Source: Turneriella sp. (GTDB lineage Bacteria > Spirochaetota > Leptospiria > Turneriellales > Turneriellaceae). Taken from it: a stretch of 64,000 nucleotides of DNA. Position numbers and translations under genes: made by a program. The stretch lies in NCBI GenBank assembly GCA_965279515.1, contig CBDIID010000003.1, positions 352,001 through 416,000 on the forward strand, written 5' to 3'. Of the stretch, positions 43,129 through 60,566 are shown piece by piece. Each line of letters starts with the position of its first letter. The first letter of the stretch is position 1. Below the pieces are notes generated by a model, which made no database searches, was not told where the DNA came from, and was given only the letters and a program-made list of their open reading frames with translations.

Positions 43129-44118
43129 TTAAGCCACCCCGCGTCCCTTTTGCGAGGCAAAATACGCGGCTTTGCGCGCGCGCATAACATTGCCGAGCGG
43201 CTGGTGCTCTTCAATCGCATTCCATGGATCGAATTTCATAAGTTCCACAGATGCGGCAAAATTGTCATAACCAGCGCCAGACAGCTCTTGCGGCGGGATC
43301 ACCAGCTTACCTACGGTAATAAAGGGCGTCTCATCCTGGGGCCAAACGGACGAAGCGTCTTCGATCGGCGTCGTGGCTGCGTCGGTATAAAACTGCAGCT
43401 GGACATCGTAGGTAATCGGTTTCGATTTCAGAATTGCGCGCAGGTCGGCTGTCAGGTCGTCCTTGGGCGCCGGAGGCAAAACCCCGTTTTGCGGCAGCAG
43501 ACGCAGTTTAGCCGCGTAATCCCCGTTTTTGATCGGCAGCGCCGTGGAGAACTCTTCCGTCGCAAAGCTGGTGAATTTTTTACCGATCACTTTGATGAGG
43601 CGGCCCATCGCCTTGAGCATGCCGAAAAAGCCATGCACTTTGATGAGGTGTTTAATCGCCGCCATGGGACCACCCGAAAGCTCCAGTAAGAGATCCAGGA
43701 AATCGTCTGCGCGCGCCGACGAAAACTCCAAGTGGTTGATCATGACAAAATCCTGTTCCGTCGTCGCCTGGCCCGTCAGAATCGACTTGCCTTTGACACC
43801 GGTTACCTTGAGCGCAAAGCCGCGGATATCGGGTTTCTTGTCACTTTGAATATCCAGGCTGCCATTGGAGAGGCGAATGACGGCATCGTATTTTGTCGCC
43901 TTCGCAAAAATACCCTGCGCCGCATGCACCGGCAAACCCGGGTTCACATGGAATTCGGCTTTAAGCGCCAACAGCCCTTTGCGGTGGAGCAGCCTGCCCT
44001 TGCCATATTTTTGCGATTTCGCCCGCTGGATGAGTTTCAGCTTCTGTGCATAGCCGTTGAACTTCTCTTCTTCACCCGCGGGAATAACTTCTTTAAATGT
44101 GGTTGATGGTTCTTTCAT
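43129..44118 (-). CDS. Catalase-related heme protein (small catalase-like family)
   Basis: Distal RLLHRKG, RLSNG, DIRGFALK and DFVMIN; proximal RARKAAY. Confidence 0.85.
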   Translation of the reverse strand: MKEPSTTFKEVIPAGEEEKFNGYAQKLKLIQRAKSQKYGKGRLLHRKGLLALKAEFHVNPGLPVHAAQGIFAKATKYDAVIRLSNGSLDIQSDKKPDIRGFALKVTGVKGKSILTGQATTEQDFVMINHLEFSSARADDFLDLLLELSGGPMAAIKHLIKVHGFFGMLKAMGRLIKVIGKKFTSFATEEFSTALPIKNGDYAAKLRLLPQNGVLPPAPKDDLTADLRAILKSKPITYDVQLQFYTDAATTPIEDASSVWPQDETPFITVGKLVIPPQELSGAGYDNFAASVELMKFDPWNAIEEHQPLGNVMRARKAAYFASQKGRGVA

Positions 44119-44119
44119 A

Positions 44120-44473
44120 TTATCCTTGTTTTTTTAATTGCTGAGCCCACTGGCCCGAAAATACAAAACGCCAGAAGGTAAAAAAATTCTCGGTGAAAAA
44201 CCGTGCGAAAAAATCGAACGGCGACTGGAAGGGGTCGGGCTTCACAGCCTCGCGGCCATGGCCGATGCCCTGTATTATCACGACGCCGACCATAGCACCG
44301 AAGGAGATCCCCGCAATAGTCCATTGCATGAGAATCAGATGCGCAATCACCGACAGCGTGGCGGCGATAAAGATGGGTGCGGTCAAAATGTGCAGAATCA
44401 GATTCAGTTTATGCGCGTGGTTTTTAGGATAGCCCGCGTATTGCCAGCTCACCAGATTCGGAGTTAACAGCAT
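44120..44473 (-). CDS. Mpo1/DUF962-like small membrane protein
   Basis: Y..NH.H..NLILH, QGIGHGRE and RFFTENF motifs. Confidence 0.7.
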   Translation of the reverse strand: MLLTPNLVSWQYAGYPKNHAHKLNLILHILTAPIFIAATLSVIAHLILMQWTIAGISFGAMVGVVIIQGIGHGREAVKPDPFQSPFDFFARFFTENFFTFWRFVFSGQWAQQLKKQG

Positions 44474-44582
44474 ACCGTATGGGTTGTTTCATTAGGGAGC
44501 GCGTCAAGCGCTGCATCGACTCAAAGTTGACACCTCTGTCCAATCGCCGTTGTCCGCATGTTGACCCCGCGAAAAATTACCC

Positions 44583-45650
44583 ATGATCAAGAATCCGTTT
44601 AAACAAATCTTAGGCTTTGAAGAATCCCGTAAGGAAACCCTGCCTTTAAACGAGCTCGAAAAAATCCGTCTCGCGGCGCCCAGGGTGCGCGATGCCTTCG
44701 TTGCAACAGGCATGCCCATCGCGGTGCGACAGTTCAGCTGCTCGGTGAGCCCTTACCCGACGGTCTATGGTTTTCATACCGCCTATGACGGAATCTATCC
44801 CTTTCTGTGGTTCAACAACCGCGCGACACTCGTGCAATTTGAAGAGGCCGGAAAACTCAAGAACCTGCTCTTTAATCCGATCTTTCCCGATCTTTCGGCG
44901 CAGGCGCCCTTCTATACCAACCTGCGGCAAAAGGTACCGCAATTTATGGAAGGTTTGCTGGCAAAAATTCATGCCCCTGTCGTCGAGCAGCTGAGAGACT
45001 TTGGTCTCAAGGCCAGCGACATCGACTACCTGAGTTACGATCACCTGCATGTGCAGGATTTACGGCCGCTCATGGGTGTGCGTGACAATAAAGGCGGCTG
45101 GCTCATTGAGCCGATGTTCCCGAACGCGAAATTTATTTTCCCGAACGCCGAATGGGAATGCACGGTTGCGCTGCACCCCTCCGTCTCAGAATGGTATGTG
45201 CCGAATGGGCTCGCGAAAGTTTCTACCGAGAATCTGATTTTGTATGAAGGGGATATCCAGCTCGGGCCGGGTGTCGCCTTCATAGCAACGCCGGGGCACA
45301 CGGCCGGCAACCACAGCCTCTACCTCAATACCAGCCAGGGCACGATGACGTTGAGTGAGAATGGCGTCGGCGCCGATGCCTATTCACCCGAAAACAGCAA
45401 GATCAACTCGGTGCGGCAAAAGGCGCGTGACCGCGGCTGGGAGGTCGTGCTAAACGCGAACACGCTCGATTATCGCCTATCGCAATATAATTCCATGGTA
45501 AAAGAGAAGCTTTTATCGGGGCCTGCGGCCGACCCCGATTATATCAACCACCACCCGACATCGGAATTCACGACATGGTTTGCCGCGCCGGGGCTTAAAC
45601 CGTCGCTCGAGCACGGCGATATAAAGCACGGTAATTTACAGGATAAGTAA
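44583..45650 (+). CDS. Metallo-beta-lactamase-fold protein with variant motif
   Basis: IDYLSYDHLHVQDL and TPGHTAGNHSL. Confidence 0.75.
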   Translation: MIKNPFKQILGFEESRKETLPLNELEKIRLAAPRVRDAFVATGMPIAVRQFSCSVSPYPTVYGFHTAYDGIYPFLWFNNRATLVQFEEAGKLKNLLFNPIFPDLSAQAPFYTNLRQKVPQFMEGLLAKIHAPVVEQLRDFGLKASDIDYLSYDHLHVQDLRPLMGVRDNKGGWLIEPMFPNAKFIFPNAEWECTVALHPSVSEWYVPNGLAKVSTENLILYEGDIQLGPGVAFIATPGHTAGNHSLYLNTSQGTMTLSENGVGADAYSPENSKINSVRQKARDRGWEVVLNANTLDYRLSQYNSMVKEKLLSGPAADPDYINHHPTSEFTTWFAAPGLKPSLEHGDIKHGNLQDK

Positions 45651-45655
45651 ACGGG

Positions 45656-46894
45656 TTATCCGAGACCGCCGCGCAGGCGTGTGGCGAGGGCAACACGTTC
45701 GACGGCGATGAGGAATGCCGCGGTGCGCAGGTCGGTTTTTCGCCCCTGCGCCAGTGCGACGACAGCGCGGCAGGCAGCGTTCATTTTCTGCTCCAGCGCG
45801 GTATTGACCTGCTCTTCGCTCCAGCCATAACGCTGCGCATTCTGCACCCATTCAAAATAAGAAACCGTGACGCCGCCGGCATTACAGAGTATGTCGGGAA
45901 TGATCGTGACGCCGCGCTGGCGCAGCAGCTGGTCTGCTTCAGGTGTCAAAGGATGGTTCGCAGCTTCGGCAATAAACCGGGCTTTGACGGCAGCGGCATT
46001 GCCGGCATGGATAACTCCGCCCAGCGCCGCCGGCACCAGCACATCGCATTCGAGGGCGAGAAGTTCGTCATTGCTGACCGGTTCGCCCGCGAATGCGGAT
46101 AACCCCCGTGCGCCGGTGGCATAAGCCTGCATGCCAGCAGCGATCTTCAAGCCATCTTTATGAAAGACGCCGCCTGTGGAATTGCTGACTGCAATGACAT
46201 GCCCGCCGAGCTCTGAAAGAATTTTCGCCATCCAGGCCGCGACATTGCCGAGGCCCTGTATGGCAAATGTTTTTCCATGGATGCCGCCGGCATTCAGGGA
46301 CGCCAGTATTTCGCGGATGGTAAAGACGGCACCCCGCCCGGTGGCGGCGTCGCGCCCGGGCGAGCCGCCGAGTTCCAGGGGTTTTCCCGTCACCACACCC
46401 GGAGCATAACCATGGAGCTTCTCATACTCATCGAGAAACCACGCCATCTCTGCGGCACCCGTGCCGACATCGGGAGCCGGTATATCGCGGTCAGGCCCGA
46501 CAATTTCATGGATGGAACGGACGAAGGCACGCATGAGCCGTTGTTTTTCCCGCGCGGACAGTGCCGCCGGGTTACAGGCGACTGCTCCCTTCGCACCGCC
46601 CAGGGGGATATCCACGACGGCGCATTTCCAGGTCATGAGCGAGGCGAGGCTGCGCACTTCGTCGAGATTGACATCGGGATGAAAACGAATACCGCCCTTG
46701 AAAGGGCCGCGCGAATTGTCGTGCTGAACACGGTATGCGGTAAAAACAGCGGGATCACCTTTGTCATTGGCAATCGCCAGTTTGACCTGTGTCTCGCGCA
46801 CCGGGATGCGCAGCCTCTGTTCGAGAATGGCGTCAAGGCCCGCCAGCGCAAAGGCGTTATCTAAAAAGAAATTGGTCTGCTCAAAGGGCGTCAA
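45656..46894 (-). CDS. gdhA: Glu/Leu/Phe/Val dehydrogenase (glutamate dehydrogenase)
   Basis: RGPFKGGIRFHP, MTWKCA, GGAKG, DIPAPDVGT, TGKP, EAANHP and NAGGVTVSYFEW motifs. Confidence 0.92.
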   Translation of the reverse strand: MTPFEQTNFFLDNAFALAGLDAILEQRLRIPVRETQVKLAIANDKGDPAVFTAYRVQHDNSRGPFKGGIRFHPDVNLDEVRSLASLMTWKCAVVDIPLGGAKGAVACNPAALSAREKQRLMRAFVRSIHEIVGPDRDIPAPDVGTGAAEMAWFLDEYEKLHGYAPGVVTGKPLELGGSPGRDAATGRGAVFTIREILASLNAGGIHGKTFAIQGLGNVAAWMAKILSELGGHVIAVSNSTGGVFHKDGLKIAAGMQAYATGARGLSAFAGEPVSNDELLALECDVLVPAALGGVIHAGNAAAVKARFIAEAANHPLTPEADQLLRQRGVTIIPDILCNAGGVTVSYFEWVQNAQRYGWSEEQVNTALEQKMNAACRAVVALAQGRKTDLRTAAFLIAVERVALATRLRGGLG

Positions 46895-46900
46895 TGGAGG

Positions 46901-47911
46901 TCAAATTACAAAATCCCCGTCAAACGTCTGCACATTGCGTATGCGGTAAAAAACCGCGAGCCCCAGGTTTAATCCCAGTGCCTTACCGGTTTCGTAGGGA
47001 ATCTCGGCTTCGACTACCTGCTGCGTCTTGTCGTCGATGAGCGTCACGCGTGTATAAGGCCCGAGCGGCTGCACGCCTTCGACCTTGGCGCTGAAGTCGG
47101 TCGGAAATTTTTGCACGATATCGACCTCGATTTCATGCGGCCGCACATAACCCTTTCCCTGGATACCTTCGATGCGGCCGTGGAACAGGTTGACATTGCC
47201 CATGAACTGGTAAACAAACGGCGTCTTCGGATTGCGGTAAACATCGTCGGGTGTACCGATCTGCTCGACCTGCCCGCGGTTCAGAATCACCACGCGGTCG
47301 GCGACTTCGAGCGCCTCTTCTTGATCATGCGTCACGAAGATACTCGTGATATGAATTTCATCGTGCAGCTTGCGCAGCCAGCGGCGCAGCTCTTTGCGCA
47401 CCTGTGCATCTAACGCACCAAAGGGTTCGTCGAGTAGCAGTACTTTAGGTTCTACGGCGAGCGCCCTCGCCAGCGCCACGCGCTGCCTTTGGCCGCCCGA
47501 CAGTTGGTGCGGATAGCGGTCTTCGAGATTCGCGAGCTGCACGAGGCCCAAAAGTTTCATCACGCGTTCGCGGATTTCTTCTTTGGAGGGGCGGAATTTT
47601 TTCTTGCGCACTTTGAGACCGAAGGCGACGTTATCAAAAATCGTCATGTGTTTGAAGAGCGCATAGTGCTGGAACACAAAGCCGACATTGCGTTCTTTCG
47701 CCGTCAGCGTCTGCACGTCGGTGCCGTCGAAGCGAATAATGCCGGATTCGGGAAATTCAAGACCTGCAATGATGCGCAAAAGCGTTGTCTTGCCGCAACC
47801 CGATGGCCCCAAGAGCGCCAAAAGCTCGCCGTGTCCCGCTTCGATCGAGACATTGTTCAGGGCTTTGAAATTCTTAAAGGTTTTACTGAGATTTTCTACT
47901 TGTATTTGCAT
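46901..47911 (-). CDS. cysA: Sulfate/thiosulfate ABC transporter ATPase
   Basis: [32 protein letters not shown] and [13 protein letters not shown] motifs. Confidence 0.95.
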
Positions 47912-47932
47912 GCGAAGTTTCCGTTTCTTTTT

Positions 47933-48019
47933 TAAACCGCAAAGTACGCTGAGGTACGCTGAGTATTTGCGGCAAACGCTGTGCCTTTCTTTGCGTCACT
48001 CTGCGCCCTCTGCGGTTAA
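47933..48019. repeat. REP-like inverted element overlapping cysW 3' end
   Basis: TAAACCGCAAAGTACGCTGAG ... CTTTGCGTCACTCTGCGCCCTCTGCGGTTAA imperfect inverted repeat. Confidence 0.6.
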
Positions 48020-48850
48020 TTTTTGTGACAGCTTTGCCTTGAGTTCAACCAGTGTTTTGACCATCAGCGTCGCGAGAGCCAGAAACGCCAAAAGCGACGC
48101 GACAGCAAACGCCGCCGTAAAATTATATTCATTGTAGAGGATTTCCACGTGCAGGGGCATGGTATTCGTTTCGCCGCGGATATGCCCCGAGACCACGGAG
48201 ACCGCGCCGAACTCACCCATCGCGCGCGCATTGCATAAAATTACGCCGTAAATGAGCCCCCATTTGATGTTAGGCAGGGTCACCATGAAAAACATCCGCA
48301 GCGGCGATGCGCCCAGCATCAGCGCCGCTTCTTCTTCACTCTTGCCCTGCTCTTCCATGAGCGGTATGAGTTCACGCGCCACAAAGGGAAATGTCACAAA
48401 GACGGTTGCGAGTACGATGCCCGGTATCGCAAAGATAATCTTGATACCGGCGCCAGAAAGTGCCCCGCCGAGCCAGCCCTGCAAACCGAAAATAAGCACA
48501 TAGATAAGCCCTGAAATCACCGGTGAAATCGCAAAGGGCAAATCGATGAGCGAGACGAGAAAACTCTTGCCCCAGAAATCAAATTTTGCCACGGCGTACG
48601 CGGCCACGACTCCAAACACGAGGTTCAGCGGCACCGAAATGCCCGCGGCAATCAATGTCAGTTTAATTGCCTCCCATGTTACCGGATCCGCGAGAGATTC
48701 GACATAATACCCCCAACCTTTGTTAAAAGCCTGTGTGAAAATTTCGTAAAGCGGCAAAACTAAAAGCAGCGTTAGAAATCCTACGGCGAAGCCGATGAAA
48801 GTAATTTTGAGCCAGAGTGGATCCTGAATTTGTGCGCTTGTCTTCTTCAT
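47996..48850 (-). CDS. cysW: Sulfate ABC transporter permease CysW
   Basis: DLPFAISPVISG, PFVARELIPLM and ARAMGEFGAVSVVSGHIRGET motifs. Confidence 0.95.
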   Translation of the reverse strand: MKKTSAQIQDPLWLKITFIGFAVGFLTLLLVLPLYEIFTQAFNKGWGYYVESLADPVTWEAIKLTLIAAGISVPLNLVFGVVAAYAVAKFDFWGKSFLVSLIDLPFAISPVISGLIYVLIFGLQGWLGGALSGAGIKIIFAIPGIVLATVFVTFPFVARELIPLMEEQGKSEEEAALMLGASPLRMFFMVTLPNIKWGLIYGVILCNARAMGEFGAVSVVSGHIRGETNTMPLHVEILYNEYNFTAAFAVASLLAFLALATLMVKTLVELKAKLSQKLTAEGAE

Positions 48851-49671
48851 GTAACCTTTCTCTTCTGGCGTATCTGCAAATAGTTCAGGATGAGGAGCAG
48901 CGCAAAGGAAATCATCAGCATCACAGCCGCCACCGCCGTCGCGCCCTGCACATTGTGCTGCTCGAGTTTGGTGATGATGATGAGCGGCGTGATTTCACTT
49001 TTGAACGGAATATTGCCAGCAATAAAGATCACGCTGCCGTACTCACCCAGCGCGCGGGAGAACGCCATGATCGTACCTGAAAACAGCGCGGGTAATAGCG
49101 ATGGTAAGATGACGCGGGTGATCGTCTGCCAGCGCGTTGCTCCCAAACTCGCCGCAGCCTCTTCGACTTCTTTTTCAAAGTCTTCTAGCACGGGCTGTAC
49201 CGAACGCACGACGAAAGGCAGACCGATAAAAGTCAGTGCAATTGTGATGCCGATGGGGTTATAGGCGGCCTTGATGCCAGCCTTCATGAGTGGCGCGCCT
49301 AAAATACCGTTCTCTGCATAGACGGTGGAAAGCGCGATACCGGCAACGGCTGTCGGCAATGCGAACGGGAGATCGACTAATGTGTCGAGCAGGCGTTTGC
49401 CCCAAAAAGTATACCGCGTCAGCACCCAGGCTATCACGAAACCGGCAAAGAGGTTGATCATCGCCGCGATAAATGCCGTCAAAAAACTCAAACGTAAGGA
49501 GATGAGGGTACGTTCTGAAAAGGCATGCTCGGCAAAATCAGCCCAGCCCAAAGAAAAACTCTTCGCAAACATCGCACCGAGTGGAATTAATACAATAACG
49601 GCGAGATAAATTACCGTGTAGGTAGAGGTTATCTTAAAACCAGGTAGGATGGATTTTTCGCGGAAAGTCAA
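48847..49671 (-). CDS. cysT: Sulfate ABC transporter permease CysT
   Basis: DLPFALPTAVAG, PFVVRSVQPVL and GEYGSVIFIAGNIP motifs; probable TTG start at 49671. Confidence 0.93.
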   Translation of the reverse strand: MTFREKSILPGFKITSTYTVIYLAVIVLIPLGAMFAKSFSLGWADFAEHAFSERTLISLRLSFLTAFIAAMINLFAGFVIAWVLTRYTFWGKRLLDTLVDLPFALPTAVAGIALSTVYAENGILGAPLMKAGIKAAYNPIGITIALTFIGLPFVVRSVQPVLEDFEKEVEEAAASLGATRWQTITRVILPSLLPALFSGTIMAFSRALGEYGSVIFIAGNIPFKSEITPLIIITKLEQHNVQGATAVAAVMLMISFALLLILNYLQIRQKRKVT

Positions 49672-49778
49672 ACCCCACCCCCTAACCCCCTCCCCATTAC
49701 ATGGAGAGGGGGAAAAAGAAGTTCCCCAAACCCCTCTCCACATCGTGGGGAGGGGTGGCCGTAGGCCGGGGTGGGGTT
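49671..49778. repeat. G/C-tract REP-like element between sbp and cysT
   Basis: Terminal IR AACCCCACCCC/GGGGTGGGGTT with two internal CCCCTC(C/T)CC..GGxGAGGGG hairpins. Confidence 0.7.
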
Positions 49779-50811
49779 AGCGACGATAGACCTGATCAAA
49801 CAGCCCTCCGTCGGCAAAATGTTCTTTGTTCGCTTTATCCCAGCCGCCGAAGGTCGCATCGACCGTGACGAGCCGTACCGGCTTCACGTGCGCATAGTGT
49901 TTGGCGATATCGGTCTTGCGGGGACGGAAAAAATTCTTGCCGGCCAGATTTTGCCCTGCGTCGGAATACAGGTATTGCAGGTAGGCGGCGGCGATTTCCT
50001 GATTGCCTTTTTTAATAGCGTTGCCTTCCATGAGGGCGACGCTCGGTTCGGCGAGAATGCTGAGCGATGGAATAACAATTTCAAACTGCCCGCCCAACTC
50101 CTTTACCGCGAGGTAGGCTTCGTTTTCCCAGGCAATCAGCACATCGCCGAGTTTGCGCTGCGTGAAGGTTGTCGTCGCACCGCGGGCACCGGCATCCAGC
50201 ACGGCCACGTTCTTATATAAAGCACGCAGAAATTCTTTTCCACGCGCAGCCGCGCTGCCGCCATCTTCCGGGTGCCCCGGAACTCCGCGCGGCCCAGTGC
50301 CTCGTGCACCGTGGGCATACGCCGCGAGATGGTTCCAACGCGCACCGCCCGAGGTTTTCGGGTTGGGTGTAATCACTGAAACGCCGGCTTTTATGAGGTC
50401 ATCCCAATCCTTAATATTTTTAGGATTTCCCTTACGAACCAAAAATACGATCGTTGAGGTATAGGGCGCACTGTTATCGGGCAGCCTCTTCTGCCAGTCG
50501 CTGGGTGCAATCTTCGCTTCGCGCGCAATGGCGTCGATATCTGAAGAGAGCGCCAGCGTGACAACGTCGGCAGCCAGACCGTCGATCACGGAACGCGCCT
50601 GTTTGCCGCTGCCGCCATGCGACATATGGAAACGTACTTCGTCTTGCGGGTGAGTTGTTTTCCAGTGTTTGAGGAATGCTTCATTATACTCGCGGTAGAA
50701 TTCGCGCGTGGGATCATAAGAGACGTTCATGAGCTCGCGCGTCGCCTTTTTACCGCCGCAGGCAGTCAGGGCAGCGATGAACAGAATAAACTTTAACGGA
50801 CTTTTTTTCAT
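49777..50811 (-). CDS. sbp: Sulfate-binding protein, lipoprotein form
   Basis: Lipobox [31 protein letters not shown] and NPKTSGGA motifs. Confidence 0.92.
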   Translation of the reverse strand: MKKSPLKFILFIAALTACGGKKATRELMNVSYDPTREFYREYNEAFLKHWKTTHPQDEVRFHMSHGGSGKQARSVIDGLAADVVTLALSSDIDAIAREAKIAPSDWQKRLPDNSAPYTSTIVFLVRKGNPKNIKDWDDLIKAGVSVITPNPKTSGGARWNHLAAYAHGARGTGPRGVPGHPEDGGSAAARGKEFLRALYKNVAVLDAGARGATTTFTQRKLGDVLIAWENEAYLAVKELGGQFEIVIPSLSILAEPSVALMEGNAIKKGNQEIAAAYLQYLYSDAGQNLAGKNFFRPRKTDIAKHYAHVKPVRLVTVDATFGGWDKANKEHFADGGLFDQVYRR

Positions 50812-50856
50812 TATAACGACCGACGAATTCGAGAATTCAGACACTCCGTCAATGAC

Positions 50857-51031
50857 GGTAACTTTGAGGGCATGCCGTCCCCGGTCTTAGCAAAACCGGG
50901 AGCAGCGAAGCGCTTTAGTCGCTGACCAAGAGGTCCACGACCTATTGGCAGTCGTTTGTCTTCAAACAACGCGAACCGTCTTCGGGTCTCCGCTTCGGAG
51001 GCTCCCGGTTTTGCCATGCCCTCAAATTACC
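50857..51031. repeat. ~175-bp long inverted-repeat element between the two sbp genes
   Basis: GGTAA.TTTGAGGGCATG..GCAAAACCGGGAGC pairs with GCTCCCGGTTTTGC-CATGCCCTCAAA-TTACC. Confidence 0.7.
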
Positions 51032-51037
51032 AGAGCA

Positions 51038-52036
51038 CTATTTCCGGTAGATCTGGTCGAAGGTGCCCCCGTCGGCAAAGTGTGTTTTTGCCGCGTTTTT
51101 CCATCCACCGAAAACACCGTCTACCGTAATCAGTTTGAGGTTCTTGAAGTGGTTGAAACGCGCCGCCGCCTTGGGGTTACGCGGGCGGTAATAGTGTTTC
51201 GCCGCGATATTCTGCCCCTCGGGTGATTCGAGATAGTCGAGGTAAGCTTTCGCGATTTCGGCATTCCCCTTGCGGTTCGCATTGACATCCACTACAGATA
51301 CCGACGGTTCTGCGAGGATACTGAAGGACGGAATCACCACATCGTACTGATCAGGGCCGAGCTCCTTAATCGCGAGAAAGGCCTCGTTTTCCCAGGCGAT
51401 ATAGACGTCGCCAATCTTGCGCTGCGTGAAGGTCGTCGTCGCGCCGCGCGCACCGGTATCGAGCACGGCGACGTTTTTATAGATCGCCGTCACGAATTCC
51501 TTCGGATCCTTTTTTTTATCCAGCGCGTAACCCCATGCCGCCAGGTAATTCCACTGCGCGCCGCCCGAGGTTTTTGGGTTCGGGGTAATGACCGACACGC
51601 CGGGCTTGCCCAGGTCGTCCCAGTCCTTAATCCCCTTAGGATTTCCCTTACGCACTAGAAACACAATCGTCGACGTATAGGGTGCGCTGTTGTTTGGCCG
51701 GCGCTTCTGCCAGTCTTCAGGCAAAAGTTTTGCTTTCTCGGCGATCACGCTGACGTCGTTCGCCAGGGCGAGTGTCACCACATCGGCGTCGAGGCCGTCG
51801 ACAACCGAACGGGCTTGTTTGCCGCTACCGCCATGCGATTGCCGGAACTTAACGTTATCCTGCGGATGCGTCGCTTTCCAGTGGCGGGCAAACGCCGCAT
51901 TAAATTCTCGGTAAAGTTCGCGTGTCGGGTCATACGAGACATTGAGCAGCTCGTAGTCTTTCGCCGCAACCTCGCCGCCGACAAGGGCGGTCAGGATGGT
52001 GGCGAGGTAAATAATTTTCAGATTTTTCACTTTCAT
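51038..52036 (-). CDS. sbp: Sulfate-binding protein, periplasmic form
   Basis: Type-I signal peptide; [23 protein letters not shown] and AWENEA motifs; SD GAAGGAG before ATG 52036. Confidence 0.93.
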
Positions 52037-52056
52037 CTCCTTCAGTATATTGGCAA

Positions 52057-53649
52057 TCAATCAAAAAGCAGGGCGGAAAGCTCGAGATACGCGAAATGCG
52101 AATCACCCGGGCGTTTGAATTTTTCGGTGTAGGCCCCTGCCTTGAAATAGGCGTAACCGATATTCACCTTCAGGTGTGGGAACGGATAGCGAATACGAAT
52201 GTTGTACTCTTCACCGAATTTGCTGTCGGTGTTGGCGTTGCCCGCAGCTGTGGCATTGCTCAGGATGCCGGCATTGTTCCAGCGATCTTTCGGGCTCGCT
52301 GCCCAATACCAGACATAAGCAGTATCGATCTTGAGTTTTTCGATCGGTTCAAACTCGAGAATAACCTTCGGTGTTTCGAGGTTTTCTAACTGGAAATAGT
52401 CGTTCGCGGACCAGGGCCTCGCGAACCCATAAAGCCTTTCGAAGCGGTTCTGTGTATTGTCGGTACGGTCAAGGTCGCCTGAAATGAAGGCATAGAAACC
52501 AGCAAGGCGGGGTTTCCACGAATGCTTGAAGGTGTAACCGACTTCTGCCGTGGTATAAAATGCATCCTGTTTGCGTTCGACGGCGTTAGCACCCAGCTGG
52601 TCTACACCAAATTGTTTGGTATAAGAGAAGTCATAGTCAAAGCCGGATTTACCAAGCACGGCGTATACACGACCACCCACGGTATGAATGTCTCTGAACG
52701 AACGCGCACCAGCGTCGCTTGTGGGATACCAATCCAGCCTGGCCGGCTGATTATCCTGGTTAAGACCGAAATAGTAAGGCTGAATCGTCACCCATTGCGA
52801 CCATTCACGCACATTAAGCACCGCGCCATAAAACCACTGCTGGCCGATGGGTTGATCAATTTTCTCAATCTCGCGGATTAATGGTTGAGCGCCAATCAGG
52901 TTCAGATCCCAGTTGTTTTCTTTTTTTCCGATGGAGATCCAACCACCCTGAAAGGTGTTCGTCGTGTTGCGCCATTCGTTGAGACCCACGAGACGGCGAT
53001 CGGTCAGCTCGAGCGCATAACGCCCGCCGCGCACCGTGAGTGGGCGATTGTAGCCAAAAAAGTTTTTAAAGTGTAACTCGGCGTAGGCCTGAATGGGCTC
53101 TAAATAATTGAAATCCCGTGTATCCGCCGCAGTTGCGATCGGTGTGCGGCGCGAATCCTGTACTTCACCAACCAACCGAAACCAATCAAATTCGAGTTTT
53201 AGGAATGCCCGCGTCTTGAACAGTACAGGGGTTTCCTGTATTGCGGGGTTACCGGTTGGCCCTTGAGGATTTACAGGGCTATTCGCCCGACGAAAGTCGT
53301 TTTGACGAATTTCACCGCGGGTGCGCTGTTCGATACCAAAGATGATCCAGTCGATGTTCTTAAAGACACCGATACCGGTTTCACTGAGTCGCTTCGCGTA
53401 AGCGGGTTGCGTGCTATCGATGGGTTCTGTACCATAACTCGGTGAACGGACATAATAGCTGTCCTTTACTTCTGTGGTTGCTGCCTTTTTATCGGCTTCG
53501 CTGACTTCCGGTGGAATGGACTCGTCGTCTTTTACGGCTTTCTCTGCCGCTTCTGCTGGTTTTGCCTTCTTCGGCGCCGCAAATAACGGGCTTGCAAAGA
53601 CCGCTCCTGCGACAGCGAAGAAGAAAACTTTCTTAATAATCGTTTTCAT
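52057..53649 (-). CDS. Outer-membrane beta-barrel, alginate-export (AlgE-like) family
   Basis: Signal peptide; [25 protein letters not shown] and SGDLD motifs; SD GGGAG; 4-nt spacing-level coupling with sbp. Confidence 0.8.
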
Positions 53650-53774
53650 TTTTTATCTCCCTTTGCACACGAGGTGCATGGAATGCGGCGCACATGGATG
53701 TGCATTGCCGCATTCTTAGTTTTAATCCCCGCTATCTAAACAAAACTTTGTTTCGCTTCAGATGCGCAGGGATA

Positions 53775-53939
53775 TCACCTTCTTATGTGCAGAAGGGGAT
53801 AGCCGCGGGCACCCTGGCAACAGGATGTTGCGGGGGCTGCGGCGCACCAGCGGCGTTTGGAACAAACGCCTGTGGTGCAAGCCGCGGCCTCGCGCGCGCG
53901 ACAACAGCAACAACAGGAGTTTTTCACGAAATTTTTCAT
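53775..53939 (-). CDS. Cys-rich putative leader peptide (54 aa, 10 Cys including CCCCC)
   Basis: MKNFVKNSCCCCCRAREAAACTTGVCSKRRWCAAAPATSCCQGARGYPLLHIRR*, in the intergenic leader of the sulfate-uptake operon. Confidence 0.65.
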   Translation of the reverse strand: MKNFVKNSCCCCCRAREAAACTTGVCSKRRWCAAAPATSCCQGARGYPLLHIRR

Positions 53940-53973
53940 AGTCAATGATTCGCTGTCAGAATCTCCGCCATGA

Positions 53974-54882
53974 TTAAAAGAGACCTTCGATCGAGAGATA
54001 ACGTTCACCCGTATCGTAGTTGAACGTGAGAATGCGCGCGCCTTTTTTGAGTTCGGGAAGTTTTTTCGCCACCGCGGCGAGCGACGCACCGCTGGAGATA
54101 CCACCGAAAAGCGCCTCTTCGCGCGCAGCGCGTTTGGCATATTCAAACGCTTCTTCTTTCGTGACCTGGATCACGCCGGTGAGAAGTTCTTTTTTCAGGT
54201 TCTTCGGGATAAAACCCGCGCCGATACCCTGGATTGGGTGCGGAGCCGGATTGCCGCCGGAAATTACCGGAGACGCTGCAGGTTCAACCGCATAGACTTC
54301 GAGATTAGGCCATTTTTCGCGTAGCGTTTGCGCGAGTGCCGTGATATGCCCGCCGGTACCGACGCCGGTGATGACGACATCTATACCTTCGGGGAAATCG
54401 CGGAGTACTTCTTGCGCGGTAAATTTAGTGTGCGCGGCGATATTGGCTTCGTTCTCGAACTGCTGTGGGATCCACGAGTTTGGGGTTTGCGCCGAAAGTT
54501 CGTTCGCGCGTTCGATCGCACCCTTCATGCCTTTTTCACGCGGCGTAAGATCGAATGTTGCCCCATATGCAGCCATAACTGCGCGGCGCTCGACCGACAT
54601 GCTCTCGGGCATAACAAGAATGAGTTTATATTTTTTCGCAGCGGCGACGAGGGCAAGGCCAATACCGGTGTTACCCGATGTCGGTTCGATGATGACACTG
54701 CCCGGCTTCAGTATACCGCGGCGTTCTGCGTCTTCGACCATCGATAACGCGATACGGTCTTTAATACTGCCGCCCGGATTCTGGCGTTCCAGTTTTACCC
54801 AAACTTCGGCGTCGCCGAACAGGTGCTTGATACGTAAATGCGGCGTATTGCCGATTGCTTCGAGAATGCTATGTATCTTCAT
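53974..54882 (-). CDS. cysK: Cysteine synthase A
   Basis: [43 protein letters not shown] and DTGERYLS motifs; start 54882 (SD AAGGAG). Confidence 0.96.
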
Positions 54883-54962
54883 AAATAACTCCTTAATTTG
54901 AATTAACCGGGTGTTTTTTCGAAGCCCCGGTGCTTCCGGGGCAATCCGGGAGTGCTCCCGAA

Positions 54963-55076
54963 TTATCCCTGAAGCGCCGAACAGCCAAGGAAACACGATG
55001 TGTCCGGGCCTGCGCAGCACGCAGAGATGCGACAGCAGCGTGACATTGAACTAAAATCTGCTATACCGAACGTCAT
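54963..55076 (-). CDS. Cys-rich putative leader peptide (37 aa, 6 Cys) upstream of cysK
   Basis: Manual translation [37 protein letters not shown]; alternative start ATG 55046; below the ORF-track length cutoff. Confidence 0.65.
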
Positions 55077-55085
55077 TCTGCGCGG

Positions 55086-55115
55086 AAGATACTCAGGCGA
55101 CCGACACTACGTCAA
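55086..55115 (-). promoter_or_regulatory. Sigma-70-like promoter for the leader-cysK transcript
   Basis: TTGACG-N18-TATCTT on the minus strand, ending 9 nt upstream of the leader ATG. Confidence 0.55.
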
Positions 55116-55134
55116 CAAAAACAGACAAACATCC

Positions 55135-55752
55135 ATGAAAACGAACAAGAAAAAAAAGCCCGAACCTCCCGCTCCGGCGACCAGCGGAGAAAACCTCACA
55201 GGGGTAGTCGCAGAAAACGTTAAACGACTGCGCAGTGACATGGATTTATCGCTCGATAAACTCGCAGGACTCTCCGGTGTTTCAAAAGCAATGCTGAGCC
55301 AGATCGAACAGGCTCGCAGCGCCCCCTCGATCAATGTGCTCTGGAAGATTGCCCGTGCGCTCGATGTGCCTTTTGCGGCACTAATCTCAAAGCGCACGGA
55401 TTCCCAGCTGCAGGTTGTGCGCAAAAGTGAAATGAAAGTGCTTTCATCACAGAAGGGAAATTTCCAGTCGAAGGCCCTGTTTCCGCTCGACATAGCCCGG
55501 CGCGTTGAATTCTACGAACTGCTGCTCAAGGCTGGCTGCGTCGAGCGCGCTGTGCCCCACCCCGCCGGTACGGCAGAGAATATCGTTGTGTCTGAGGGCG
55601 AGCTGGAGATTGAAATCGGCGGACAGAGAACTTTATTAAAAGAGGGCGACTCCATTTACTTCGTGGCCGACGTGCCGCATATTTACCGCAGCATCGGATC
55701 CAAAGACACACGCGCCTATCTCGTGATGACATACGCAGAAAAGCGCGTGTAA
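55135..55752 (+). CDS. XRE-family HTH + cupin transcriptional regulator (SutR/YdcN-like)
   Basis: LSLDKLAGLSGVSKAMLSQIE..PSINVLWKIA HTH; cupin HPAGTAE and GDSIYFVADVPHIY; start 55135. Confidence 0.88.
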   Translation: MKTNKKKKPEPPAPATSGENLTGVVAENVKRLRSDMDLSLDKLAGLSGVSKAMLSQIEQARSAPSINVLWKIARALDVPFAALISKRTDSQLQVVRKSEMKVLSSQKGNFQSKALFPLDIARRVEFYELLLKAGCVERAVPHPAGTAENIVVSEGELEIEIGGQRTLLKEGDSIYFVADVPHIYRSIGSKDTRAYLVMTYAEKRV

Positions 55753-55801
55753 GCAATTTTCTGTTCAGCCGGTCTCTTTGCCCGTATTCACCGCTCACTA
55801 A

Positions 55802-57130
<1,329 letters not shown>

Positions 57131-57183
57131 TTGAATCGCCCGCGGGGAGATATCCCCGTGGGCCGATCTAAGCTGCCGGCAAA

Positions 57184-57594
57184 TCAGCTGGCGCGCTTCT
57201 CTTCTAACCACGCATAGACGTAAGTTCCCAGGAAGATACCCAGCACAATAAACGCGCCTGAGTGGAGTCCATAACCCAGAATTGCGAGCGCGGGGCCGGG
57301 GCATGCGCCTGTTAAGGCCCAGCCTGCTCCCGAAATCAGTCCACCAACCACGTGATTTTTGGACAGTTTCTCCACATTCCACTCGGTTTCGCCGCCCAAA
57401 AGCGGCTGGCGCCTGAGTTTTTTCCAGAGCTGTACGCCGATAAACGAAACCGGCACGGCAACGCCCAGAACTCCGTACATATGCCATGACTTGAGAAGAA
57501 ACATGTCGCGGATCACATCATAACTCGACACGCCTGCGCGGATGAGTATGTAGCCGAACGCAGTACCCAGCACCAGGAAAACAATGCGCAACAT
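57184..57594 (-). CDS. YeeE/YedE-family sulfur-compound transporter half (DUF6691-like)
   Basis: GGLISGAGWALTGACPGPAL motif; TM helices. Confidence 0.85.
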   Translation of the reverse strand: MLRIVFLVLGTAFGYILIRAGVSSYDVIRDMFLLKSWHMYGVLGVAVPVSFIGVQLWKKLRRQPLLGGETEWNVEKLSKNHVVGGLISGAGWALTGACPGPALAILGYGLHSGAFIVLGIFLGTYVYAWLEEKRAS

Positions 57595-58092
57595 CTATTT
57601 TACTCCCGAGATGAATGAAATGAGAATGGTGACAATCACACCCGCCACGAGAAAACCTCCCGTCGCTACAAAACTTGCCAGCGAGCCCTTCGAAAGACCT
57701 GCAATGGAATTACCTGATGTACAACCCTTTGCAAGCCTTGCGCCATAACCCCAGAGAAATCCCCCTGTGATCAGCACAGCTGCCTTCACACCAAGACTTG
57801 TCCCCCAAATATCATTGAACCGGCCAAGGTCCCATGTCGGATGCCATCCCGTTGTGGTTAAAGCGGCGATAGCGCCACCAGCCACTAACCCGACTGTAAA
57901 GAATGTACGAAAACCGAAGGCGCCGCCGAGATCGGGCCTGGAAAAATATTTGAGGCGCGAAAAAATTCCGCAGACCGTGGCATAACCGCGGGTCACCGAG
58001 AGAAATTTTCCTGTGGATATAACTAATAAAATCGAAACTGTGGCAATGGCAAGTCCACCCAACCAAAACGGCCAAATATATGCAGAGGTCAT
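57595..58092 (-). CDS. YeeE/YedE-family sulfur-compound transporter half
   Basis: GGFLWGYGARLAKGCTSGNSIAG motif; start 58092 with SD GGAGG. Confidence 0.87.
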   Translation of the reverse strand: MTSAYIWPFWLGGLAIATVSILLVISTGKFLSVTRGYATVCGIFSRLKYFSRPDLGGAFGFRTFFTVGLVAGGAIAALTTTGWHPTWDLGRFNDIWGTSLGVKAAVLITGGFLWGYGARLAKGCTSGNSIAGLSKGSLASFVATGGFLVAGVIVTILISFISGVK

Positions 58093-58155
58093 GGGGGCAA
58101 CCTCCCGGAGGTTGCTCACGAGCGTAAAGTCAAACAGCTGTCGCACGCCCGGGGG

Positions 58156-59385
58156 TTAGTGCCCGGCCGGTGTCGCACCGGGCTGCGGTTCGGGCATGAC
58201 TGTGATACGCGTGCGTCCCGCAAATAAAACTGTGCCCGCAAGCACCGCGGTGAGTGCGATTAATGCCGCCATCGCGGTCACACCTTTTGCAGCGAAAAGC
58301 CCGATGCCCGCCGAAGCAATTCCGGCGACGCCGATCTGGATAAACCCGAGGAGCGCCGAAGCGCTACCCATATGGCGTGTGAGCGGTGCCAATGCCAGCG
58401 CCGTGGCATTCGGGTTATTAAAGCCAATCGCAGCAAGACAGGTAAAGAGCAGTGCGAATGTCACATAAAAATTCAGCCCCCCCATCAGCGCAGCGCCGAA
58501 AAAGACCAATGCCGCTGCGATTTGTACGCACAGTGCAATACGAAAGATCACCGCGCTCTTCACCCGGCGGCCGAGCAGCACATTGAGCTGGCTGCTCGCA
58601 ATAAAGCCGATAGAAAGCAAGGCAAACACGAGGCTGTAGCTTTTCGGCGAAAGGCCGTAAAACTCCATGAAGACTGTCGGCGAAGCGGCAACATAGATGA
58701 ACAGCGTCGCAAACGAAAAAGCGCTCGCAAAGGCGTAAGTATAGAACGCCGGTTCTTTCAGAATCCCGAAAAAGGTACTGAAAATCGGCCGCAAGTGCAG
58801 CGAAACCGAGGCATCCGCCTTTTGGCCTTCGGGTAAAAAGAAACGCAGCAGAAACACGATGAAGATCGCAACCGCGATCAGCGCAAAAAACACCGAGCGC
58901 CACCCCCACGCTGCCGCAATAAAACCACCGACCGTTGGCCCCAGTAGAGGCGAGACACCGAGAATCAGAACGAGCAGCGAAAAGATGCGCGCGCTTTCGT
59001 TCACGGGAAAAAAATCGCGCACCATGGCGACCGCTGCAACCCAGGCGACCGAACCACCCAGCGCCTGAAAAAAACGAAAGGTGCTGAGCACCTCGAGGTT
59101 CGGCGCGAAGACGCAGCCGAGCGAAGACAAGATAAAGAGGCACAAACCCGCATAGAGTGGCGGCTTACGCCCGAAACGATCGAGAAACGGGCCATACAGA
59201 ATCTGGCCGAGCGCCATGCCGATGAAATAGGCGGTGACCGAGAGTGCGAGCTGCGCCTGTGTCGTCTTGAAGTCGCGCGCCAGTTCGGGAAAAGCCGGCA
59301 GGTAGAGATCGATCGCGAGAGGGCTCACCGTCGCGAGCGCACCCAGAATCCAGACGATGAGCGTGCTCCGCGGATGCGCTTCCAT
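58156..59385 (-). CDS. Bcr/CflA-family MFS transporter
   Basis: PLAIDLYLPAFP, GQILYGPFLDRFGRKP and RFFQALGG..MVRD motifs; multiple TM helices. Confidence 0.92.
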   Translation of the reverse strand: MEAHPRSTLIVWILGALATVSPLAIDLYLPAFPELARDFKTTQAQLALSVTAYFIGMALGQILYGPFLDRFGRKPPLYAGLCLFILSSLGCVFAPNLEVLSTFRFFQALGGSVAWVAAVAMVRDFFPVNESARIFSLLVLILGVSPLLGPTVGGFIAAAWGWRSVFFALIAVAIFIVFLLRFFLPEGQKADASVSLHLRPIFSTFFGILKEPAFYTYAFASAFSFATLFIYVAASPTVFMEFYGLSPKSYSLVFALLSIGFIASSQLNVLLGRRVKSAVIFRIALCVQIAAALVFFGAALMGGLNFYVTFALLFTCLAAIGFNNPNATALALAPLTRHMGSASALLGFIQIGVAGIASAGIGLFAAKGVTAMAALIALTAVLAGTVLFAGRTRITVMPEPQPGATPAGH

Positions 59386-59498
59386 ACGCCAGAAACAGAC
59401 CTTGAGACATGCTGAACATCAGAGCAAAAAACAGGGAGGACTGAAGATACGCGCTGGTTTTCTCCTTTCCGTCCTGTCTCAGCGGCATATTTTTGTGC

Positions 59499-60566
59499 AT
59501 GGCAGAAAACGTTTCGGCACAACTCATTGGTGGCGACCCCGTGACACCCGGATGGAAAAACTGGGGCTTTGTGAAGAAATTCGCCTCGATTTTCATCAAA
59601 GACGTGCGCGACATTGACCTCTTTACCTGCATGATAAAGCTCAGCATCCTCTTGCCCGGCTCGGCATTCGCCATCTGGTATTTTCCGCAATACCGCCTCT
59701 ACATCGGCCTCGGCCACATCGCGCTTTTTCTCATCTATCTCGGCCCCTACATTCTCATGCTGCACAATGTCTCGCACCGGCCGCTCTTCCACTATTCGTT
59801 GCGCTTTTTAAATTTCTGGCCACAGGCGGTTTTAGGTGTCTTTTTCGGATTAACCCCGTATACGTACTTCTCTCACCATTTGGGGATGCACCACCCGGAG
59901 AACAATCTCATGACCGATCTCAGCACGACGCTCAAATACCGCCGCGACAGCTTTCTCGGCTTCATGCATTATTACCTCAGCTTCGCGATCTTCGGCATCT
60001 TTACGCTCGGGTATTATTTCGTGAAACGCAACCGCTGGGCGCTCTTCCGTAAGGCGATCCTGGGCGAGCTCTCTTGGTACCTGATCGTTGGCAGCCTGCT
60101 GTATTTTAACCCCGCGGAATTTCCGCGCCAGGTAACGCTCTTCGTCTTTGTGATTCCCCTGCTGCTCTGCCGTTTTCTGCTCATGGCCGGCAACTGGACC
60201 CAGCACGCCTTTGTCGACACCTCTGACCCCGCTAACCCTTATCTCAACAGCATCACCTTCATCGACTCGCCCTATAACAAGCGCTGTTTCAACGACGGTT
60301 ACCATATCGGCCACCACGTGAACATGAACCGCCACTGGCTCGACATGCCTGGCGACTTCCTCGACAACCTGCAGACTTATAAAGAAACCAAATCGATTGT
60401 TTTCCGAAAACTCGATTATTTTATCATCTGGATTTTCCTCATGGCAAAACAGTATGGCATCCTCAGCAGGTTCTTCGTCGATCTCTCGGATAAAAAAATG
60501 TCCAGAGACGAAATTATTGCGCTGATGAAAAGCCGCATGCTACCGTTAAAATCCAGTGCGCGTTAA
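59499..60566 (+). CDS. Membrane fatty-acid desaturase-family protein
   Basis: His boxes HNVSH, HHLGMHH and YHIGHH, plus GNWTQH. Confidence 0.87.
   Translation: MAENVSAQLIGGDPVTPGWKNWGFVKKFASIFIKDVRDIDLFTCMIKLSILLPGSAFAIWYFPQYRLYIGLGHIALFLIYLGPYILMLHNVSHRPLFHYSLRFLNFWPQAVLGVFFGLTPYTYFSHHLGMHHPENNLMTDLSTTLKYRRDSFLGFMHYYLSFAIFGIFTLGYYFVKRNRWALFRKAILGELSWYLIVGSLLYFNPAEFPRQVTLFVFVIPLLLCRFLLMAGNWTQHAFVDTSDPANPYLNSITFIDSPYNKRCFNDGYHIGHHVNMNRHWLDMPGDFLDNLQTYKETKSIVFRKLDYFIIWIFLMAKQYGILSRFFVDLSDKKMSRDEIIALMKSRMLPLKSSAR

Follow-up and report, generated by a model that had tools for sequence, protein, structure and literature searches.

A conserved cysteine-codon leader, probably a cysteine-sensing attenuator, before the sulfate-uptake genes of a Turneriella genome

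A cysteine-rich upstream reading frame (uORF) precedes an outer-membrane barrel gene and the sulfate importer genes in a 64,000-nt stretch of a Turneriella sp. genome (assembly GCA_965279515.1, contig CBDIID010000003.1, positions 352,001 to 416,000 of the forward strand), here called the window. This Cys leader is real and is conserved within one spirochete family. It is very likely a cysteine-sensing attenuator of some kind. According to RNA folding the leader, designated leader 2, would act by occluding the ribosome-binding site (RBS) of the barrel gene through a relay of four RNA segments, a reading to which we assign a probability of roughly 0.6. A further Cys leader, leader 1, is located in front of cysK and had been missed in the initial annotation of this DNA. 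All coordinates are positions in the window, and features are on the minus strand unless stated otherwise.

The uORF of leader 2 was reread from the letters of the sequence. It starts with ATG, comprises 54 codons including 10 Cys codons and occupies positions 53939-53775, as had been annotated. The run of five Cys codons at codons 9-13 (TGT TGT TGC TGT TGT, 53915-53901), the predicted stall site, was also confirmed. An additional Cys pair is found at codons 40-41, and a pyrimidine stretch (53915-53921) lies immediately 5' of the run. The cysK stop (53974) is separated from the barrel ATG (53649) by 324 nt, a distance previously given as about 320 nt. A ranking of the intergenic sense short ORFs in the genome of the window (G000), 4415 in all and based on a crude gene caller, placed the uORF first both by Cys count (10, followed by 7) and by length of the Cys run (5, followed by 3). 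The uORF contains the only run of at least five TGY codons outside called genes, the genome holding 39 runs of at least four. With a Cys background of 3.2% the binomial probability of at least 10 Cys in 54 codons amounts to 8e-6, a value not corrected for the number of ORFs (4415). A slippage repeat as the source of the Cys run was considered and rejected. The other three intergenic runs of four Cys codons in G000 were dismissed as leaders, one having no in-frame start and two being located inside uncalled short genes. The startless one is located in the control region of a Mu-like prophage (G000:C3:505000-515000; repressor, transposase and AAA ATPase assigned by eye). No similar DNA was detected in a phage collection, and no Cys leader was found before the cysH operon of G000.

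The start signals of this uORF are weak in G000. There is no well-spaced Shine-Dalgarno (SD) sequence, and a GGAG found 23 nt before the start is separated from it by a small hairpin. The distance from the cysK stop to the start of leader 2 is 34 nt, and the promoter match there is weak (9/12). A mini-ORF of nine codons (53942-53971) spans the distance from the cysK stop to the uORF start with gaps of 2 nt; it is also present in G001 and G006 and may serve as a re-initiation relay. Ribosomes arriving from cysK would probably translate the uORF. A GTG overlapping the cysK stop is present in G003.

The gene identities proposed in the initial annotation hold. Cysteine synthase A (cysK, 53974-54882) was recognized by TIGR01139 above its cut-off, and both sbp genes, cysT and cysW also scored above the NCBIfam cut-offs. 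The product of cysA passed the sulfate ABC ATPase subfamily model. Together the sbp, sbp, cysT, cysW and cysA genes of the importer occupy 52060-46901. The barrel gene (53649-52057), predicted to be the first gated gene, encodes a protein of the Pfam family Alginate_exp. Its closest named relative is from a Turneriella sp. with 85% identity, and the best relatives beyond the genus are found in Nitrosospira and Methylomonas (39-42% identity). Genomes of family f8 carry a different barrel at the equivalent place. Together these observations hint at a transfer. A short insert rich in Gly and Pro occurs around residue 184-198 of the second sbp (50844-49777), and the first sbp (52060-51038) is without insert; a similar short insert is located at another position of the first sbp of G006 (L037). 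Elsewhere in G000 a gene region is duplicated on contig C1 (G000:C1:5155 and C1:28630), perhaps as the overlap of a circular plasmid assembly.

The region of leader 2 folds with a z score of -8.2. Eight homologous leaders, termed type A, were compared (G000, G001, G003, G005, G006, G007, G012 and L085). The four hairpins of the initial annotation all exist, but conservation is lacking for the two which had been regarded as its working parts (53836-53888 and 53681-53715). The first, a lineage-specific hairpin within the uORF, had been quoted from the plus strand; it begins 12 nt past the Cys run, is single-copy and is absent in relatives. The second, together with the hairpin beside the SD, belongs to a REP-like palindromic insert with two hairpins (53664-53715), which occurs in only two of the eight leaders (G000 and G001). 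Its sub-motifs are present in 51 and 17 copies in G000. The insert lies ahead of the barrel SD. Related pieces were seen at other places of G000 and in G005, G008 and G011, and the uORFs of G001 and G006 also contain some.

The conserved RNA, which had been overlooked, consists of 53813-53761 and 53732-53726, and its core is a hairpin of 56 nt (53813-53761) formed by arms 2a-2b, a loop and arms 3a-3b. Segment 1 (53892-53902) overlaps the last Cys codon and pairs with 2a in the minimum free energy (MFE) fold of the ribosome-free RNA; it is similarly placed by the Cys run in L085, G003, G005, G007 and G012. Segment 2a (53803-53813) has segment 1 or 3b as its partner. Segment 2b with the loop (53786-53801) is an anti-SD, whose partner is either 3a or, in a duplex of -21.0 kcal/mol, the barrel RBS. 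Segment 3a (53773-53783) is an SD-like decoy that holds 2b and includes the uORF stop. For segment 3b (53761-53772) the alternative partners are 2a (2:3) and segment 4 (53726-53732, 3:4), and the latter arm, followed by an A-rich tail in G000, is present in all eight leaders, in each of which this alternative pairing is possible. In the 2:3 hairpin 93% of the cells are paired, and 4 of 20 pairs show two-sided changes among the eight sequences. All pairing measures except the count of pair types exceeded those of shuffled and slid controls, and the relatedness of the eight sequences inflates these measures.

In the unconstrained MFE structure of G000, 2b and the loop (53801-53786), about 100 nt 3' of the Cys run, pair over 16 nt with the RBS strand of the barrel gene (53654-53669, including the SD at 53663-53657) around the 3:4 hairpin. 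In the MFE structures of G001, G005, G006, G007 and L085 the RBS is paired with codons located immediately 5' of a Cys codon or Cys run. The pyrimidine stretch pairs with the barrel SD in G001, G006 and L085, and not in the MFE structure of G000. Leader 2 is compact, about 130 nt, in L085 and G012.

From these elements the following mechanism is proposed, with cysteine as the probable signal. At ample Cys-tRNA the ribosome would run through the uORF and leave, segment 1 would pair with 2a and 3b with segment 4, and the freed anti-SD would pair with the barrel RBS (OFF). At scarce Cys-tRNA the ribosome would stall on the Cys run and cover segment 1. Then 2a-2b would pair with 3a-3b as these are transcribed, the decoy 3a would hold the anti-SD, and the RBS would stay open (ON), provided that 2:3 persists kinetically. 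The main output would be translation initiation at the barrel gene, and the sulfate importer would follow via polarity.

In order to follow the choice between the hairpins, the probability of 2:3 was computed on transcripts cut after segment 3, either naked or with a ribosome footprint. Naked transcripts gave low values for G000 (0.01), L085 (0.01), G005 (0.02) and G007 (0.00), intermediate ones for G003 (0.26) and G012 (0.62) and high ones for G006 (0.93) and G001 (1.00), so that 2:3 forms without a ribosome in G001 and G006. For G000 the probability was 0.01 with the A-site at C9-C10, 0.17 at C11 and 0.65-0.73 at C12-C13. Footprints on Cys codons raised it to 0.97-1.0 in L085, 0.84-0.92 in G005, 0.69-0.99 in G007 and 1.0 in G012. 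It fell to about 0 when the ribosome arrived at segment 2. This footprint effect was obtained with three footprint sizes, a change of size amounting to a shift by one codon. Mutually exclusive 1:2, 2:3 and 3:4 pairings set by ribosome position were clear in five of the eight leaders, as far as the folding model goes. Cys codons favoured 2:3 over other codons with a pooled p of 0.002 (circular shift, seven leaders, codons with a footprint over 2a dropped), a value which is overstated since the leaders are kin. G003 was left out of this test because of its frame ambiguity. In single genomes the effect was not significant for G000 (rank 13/41), G001 and G006.

The consequences for the barrel RBS were evaluated as opening cost. 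Locking 2:3 by the stall lowered this cost in seven of eight leaders, for instance from 12.1 to 6.9 kcal/mol in G000, from 15.0 to 4.7 in G012 and from 18.4 to 11.4 in G005; there was no gain in G007 (6.5 to 6.8). The native RBS was harder to open than with a shuffled uORF in six of eight leaders (1/60 shuffles in G000), among which the G006 leader is cut at the contig end, and excess occlusion was absent in G001 (27/60 shuffles) and L085 (13/100 shuffles). The 2b:RBS duplexes formed with the leader's own RBS were better than swapped ones (p 0.008, again overstated by kinship) and the best of their column in G000, G003 and G012. The 5' part of the uORF paired no better with its own RBS than with swapped ones (p 0.15). 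Within the limits of such modelling, the RBS shuffles, the 2:3 lock and the own-RBS matching lend support to SD occlusion, which had been a guess in the initial annotation.

Folding with a footprint on the Cys codons, which had been suggested as a check, agreed only in part. At equilibrium a stall at C9-C13 in G000 gave an RBS cost of 7.9-12.4 kcal/mol in comparison to 12.1 without it, that is, little change. Once segment 4 is present, 3:4 dominates at equilibrium in G000 for every stall position before codon 53. For the relay to work in this genome, kinetic trapping of the ON state would consequently be required. In general, equilibrium folding with only a footprint showed no clear RBS switch and mostly retained 3:4.

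The absence of a U-tailed terminator was confirmed. None was called after the uORF, and 3:4 carries an A-rich or mixed tail with no U-tract in all eight leaders. Thus, intrinsic termination is excluded and the output is probably translational. We consider it rather unlikely that the output is nevertheless transcriptional, with the stall and the choice between 2:3 and 3:4 setting Rho loading or a pause of RNA polymerase, so that transcripts end before the barrel gene at ample cysteine. The four-segment logic resembles that of transcription attenuators, and a Rho N-terminal domain (Rho_N) is encoded; a leader of the tnaC type would in addition need an unstructured, C-rich rut site under ribosome control. 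Homologs of leader 1, in whose folding no RBS switch was found, have pyrimidine-rich tails, and in the accessible text of PMC1262725 Rho-dependent control is proposed for actinobacterial cys leaders without terminator. Against Rho, the stretch after the uORF stop measures just 48-125 nt and is mostly structured, and both the RBS occlusion above that of shuffles and the own-RBS matching favour translation.

Pure translational coupling is improbable. Here, ribosomes ending the uORF would melt the anti-SD, and Cys stalls would lower barrel expression or be irrelevant. In line with this, the RBS cost was minimal with a ribosome at the last codons in G000 (6.9-7.9 kcal/mol at equilibrium), G003 and G012, an effect which has the wrong sign for the stall-and-release relay if ribosomes linger there; however, it was not seen in G005. 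Coupling moreover predicts less sulfate import during cysteine starvation and leaves the preference for 2:3 at Cys codons unexplained.

RBS occlusion by the relay is the preferred reading. A barrel ortholog with at least 53% identity was found in 10 of 61 genomes searched, and a sense uORF with two or more consecutive Cys codons lies just upstream of it in nine of the ten. In addition to these, G006 has the leader at a contig end. The remaining genome, G014, is from another genus and 54% complete; it showed no such uORF upstream of the barrel. As background, of the 769 G000 genes preceded by a gap of 150 nt or more, 82 have an upstream uORF with at least two consecutive Cys and 7 have one with at least three. 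Among six metagenome loci the two close ones have the leader, three distant barrels (39-42%) have none, and one locus has no upstream DNA. The Cys enrichment predicted for uORFs of related genomes was recovered within the family: in the eight type A leaders 52 of 364 codons (14.3%) encode Cys, 4.5 times the background of 3.2%. Met was the next most enriched residue (4.0 times, start codons included). The type A peptides of 26-59 residues have little similarity and variable Cys spacing, and the RNA core is read in three frames. In G003 three consecutive Cys and a Cys pair are located in different frames.

Four loci without cysK at this place (G002, G009, G011 and L081) have a different ORF of 30 codons with a GTG start and two or three consecutive Cys; its frame is less sure because a low-Cys alternative frame is open in three of the four. 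No leader was found in G004, G008 and G013, in which the barrel is missing and sbp directly follows cysK, a regulator or sulfite reductase. Leaders were found only within the family of this genome and are not a general feature of Leptospiraceae. In the large sister family f8, presumably the Leptospiraceae, no Cys leader precedes the 14 barrel or the 8 cysK orthologs, and beyond the family of G000 none precedes any of 27 cysK-like copies (18 other genomes). A covariance model of the core, run against 34 genomes of the order, returned the loci of the seven training genomes, their reverse strands and one weak match (G010, E 0.0125). It revealed no second copy of the core.

We assign a low probability to the view that the element is an untranslated RNA, either a protein-binding site or a new riboswitch, in which the UGY repeats are maintained because they pair and the ORF is incidental. 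The core is conserved better than the peptide, G-U pairing also tolerates exchanges between UGU and UGC, and the start signals in G000 are the weak ones described above. On the other hand, the Cys runs are preceded by an in-frame start codon not only in the eight type A leaders, without exception, but also in ten leaders of other builds which do not share the core. Furthermore, a search of 44000-60000 gave no Rfam match at E up to 5, riboswitches and T-boxes included, and a SAM-box-like reading of the leader was considered and rejected. A small metallothionein-like or thiol-buffer peptide acting in trans is very improbable and was dismissed, since despite 10 Cys in 54 residues and Cys scattered beyond the run in G000, G001 and G006 there is no Pfam or NCBIfam match and no conserved Cys spacing, and leaders with a preserved RNA core differ in peptide length (26-59 residues) and in 3' frame.

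Leader 1 before cysK contains a uORF of 37 codons with 6 Cys, including two Cys pairs (54963-55076), and is followed by two competing GC hairpins without U-tail at about 54960-54915. Its ATG is located 9 nt past a -10-like hexamer. Inspection by eye revealed the same arrangement, without SD, in five of six cysK-type leaders, which suggests a near-leaderless initiation. In 18 genomes belonging to the family there are 24 cysK copies, five of which (in G000, G001, G006, G016 and G017) have a uORF with a Cys pair upstream; none of the nine copies of the paralog group has one. The cysK leaders of the sister genera have six (G016) or three (G017) Cys in a row, both C-terminal before the stop. G016 has a further uORF, ending in three Cys, before a shortened barrel gene. 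Poly-Cys loci of the sister genera are L150 and L075 (G016) and L151 (G017). In L085 (1150-1440) cysK is gone and two tandem Cys leaders lie directly before the barrel; the SD ahead of the second one resembles that of cysK. Leader 1 would gate cysK. A combined scheme is tentative and somewhat doubtful as a whole: two serial checkpoints on one transcript, a near-leaderless leader gating cysK and the nine-codon relay passing ribosomes from cysK to leader 2, whose trp-like switch would exchange decoy SD and anti-SD in place of forming a terminator. Such a cysteine attenuation system would have evolved independently in spirochetes, with three builds in the family.

In the literature searched, cysteine leader-peptide attenuation is demonstrated for mycobacteria alone, and for other Actinobacteria and Rhodobacterales it is a prediction, as far as the accessible texts go. 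The mycobacterial examples are polycysteine short ORFs, Ms5788A and Rv2334A before cysK1-cysE (Canestrari et al., 10.1101/834739); the available part of PMC13096801 concerns M. tuberculosis only. According to the accessible text, they have in common with leader 2 a short ORF that carries successive Cys codons and lies ahead of sulfur genes, the absence of a terminator, a proposed SD release by the stalled ribosome and several leaders per genome. However, the mycobacterial ORF is described there as leaderless and first in its transcript, with a C-terminal Cys tract that itself forms a single long duplex with the SD. Leader 2 is intercistronic, its run is located at codons 9-13 of 54, and its anti-SD lies about 100 nt downstream under a 1:2/2:3/3:4 relay. 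We did not assign it to the mycobacterial class because it is not a leaderless first ORF and its tract is not the SD partner. Leader 1 and the leaders of the sister genera are closer to the mycobacterial build.

With the trpL and hisL attenuators, as outlined in the introduction of 10.1101/834739, leader 2 shares tandem cognate codons and, as predicted by folding, the selection of exclusive hairpins by ribosome position. A similar hairpin relay is part of uORFC-8-2 before cysS in Rhodobacterales, a prediction given in the accessible text of PMC8632094. In contrast to these types, 3:4 has no U-tract in any of the eight copies and the predicted output is RBS exposure. The cys leaders predicted in Actinobacteria (PMC1262725) also have Cys runs, no terminator and an unproven mechanism; their runs are C-terminal, as in G016 and G017. 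Conserved hairpins were not found for them according to the text available, whereas a covarying core is present here, in a different phylum and with sulfate import as target.

For Leptospira under superoxide an induction of sbp, cysAWT and cysK is reported, with no leader mechanism mentioned in the accessible text (PMC12345160). The leader-gene counts for Spirochaetales in PMC4833913 do not mention cys in the part available. Among open-access main texts, none was found that reports Cys leaders for Turneriella, Leptospira or other spirochetes. The principle is known from mycobacteria, and the spirochete build looks different. Its occurrence in a free-living spirochete, with an RNA of another build, would point to convergence and would extend cysteine attenuation to sulfate import and to a position within an operon. 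As modelled, leader 2 combines a trp-type hairpin relay with an SD-occlusion output in one element, and the compact switch of L085 and G012 suits cell-free testing.

A sigma-70-like operon promoter (TTGACG, 18 nt, TATCTT; 55086-55115) was identified by eye upstream of leader 1, with like spacing in relatives. A palindromic operator-like site (55056-55071) lies over the start of leader 1. The divergent XRE-cupin regulator (plus strand, 55135-55752; HTH_3 and cupin domains), which may resemble E. coli SutR, is a candidate for binding to this site. A matrix scan for this operator gave few intergenic matches (55071-55056, the region before cysI and few others) and many within genes. Most relatives have a palindrome of the form GTTCGNTATARCRRAC upstream of cysK or of the barrel gene, and a like motif is located over the start of the second sbp (50819-50808) and before cysI (G000:C3:541995).
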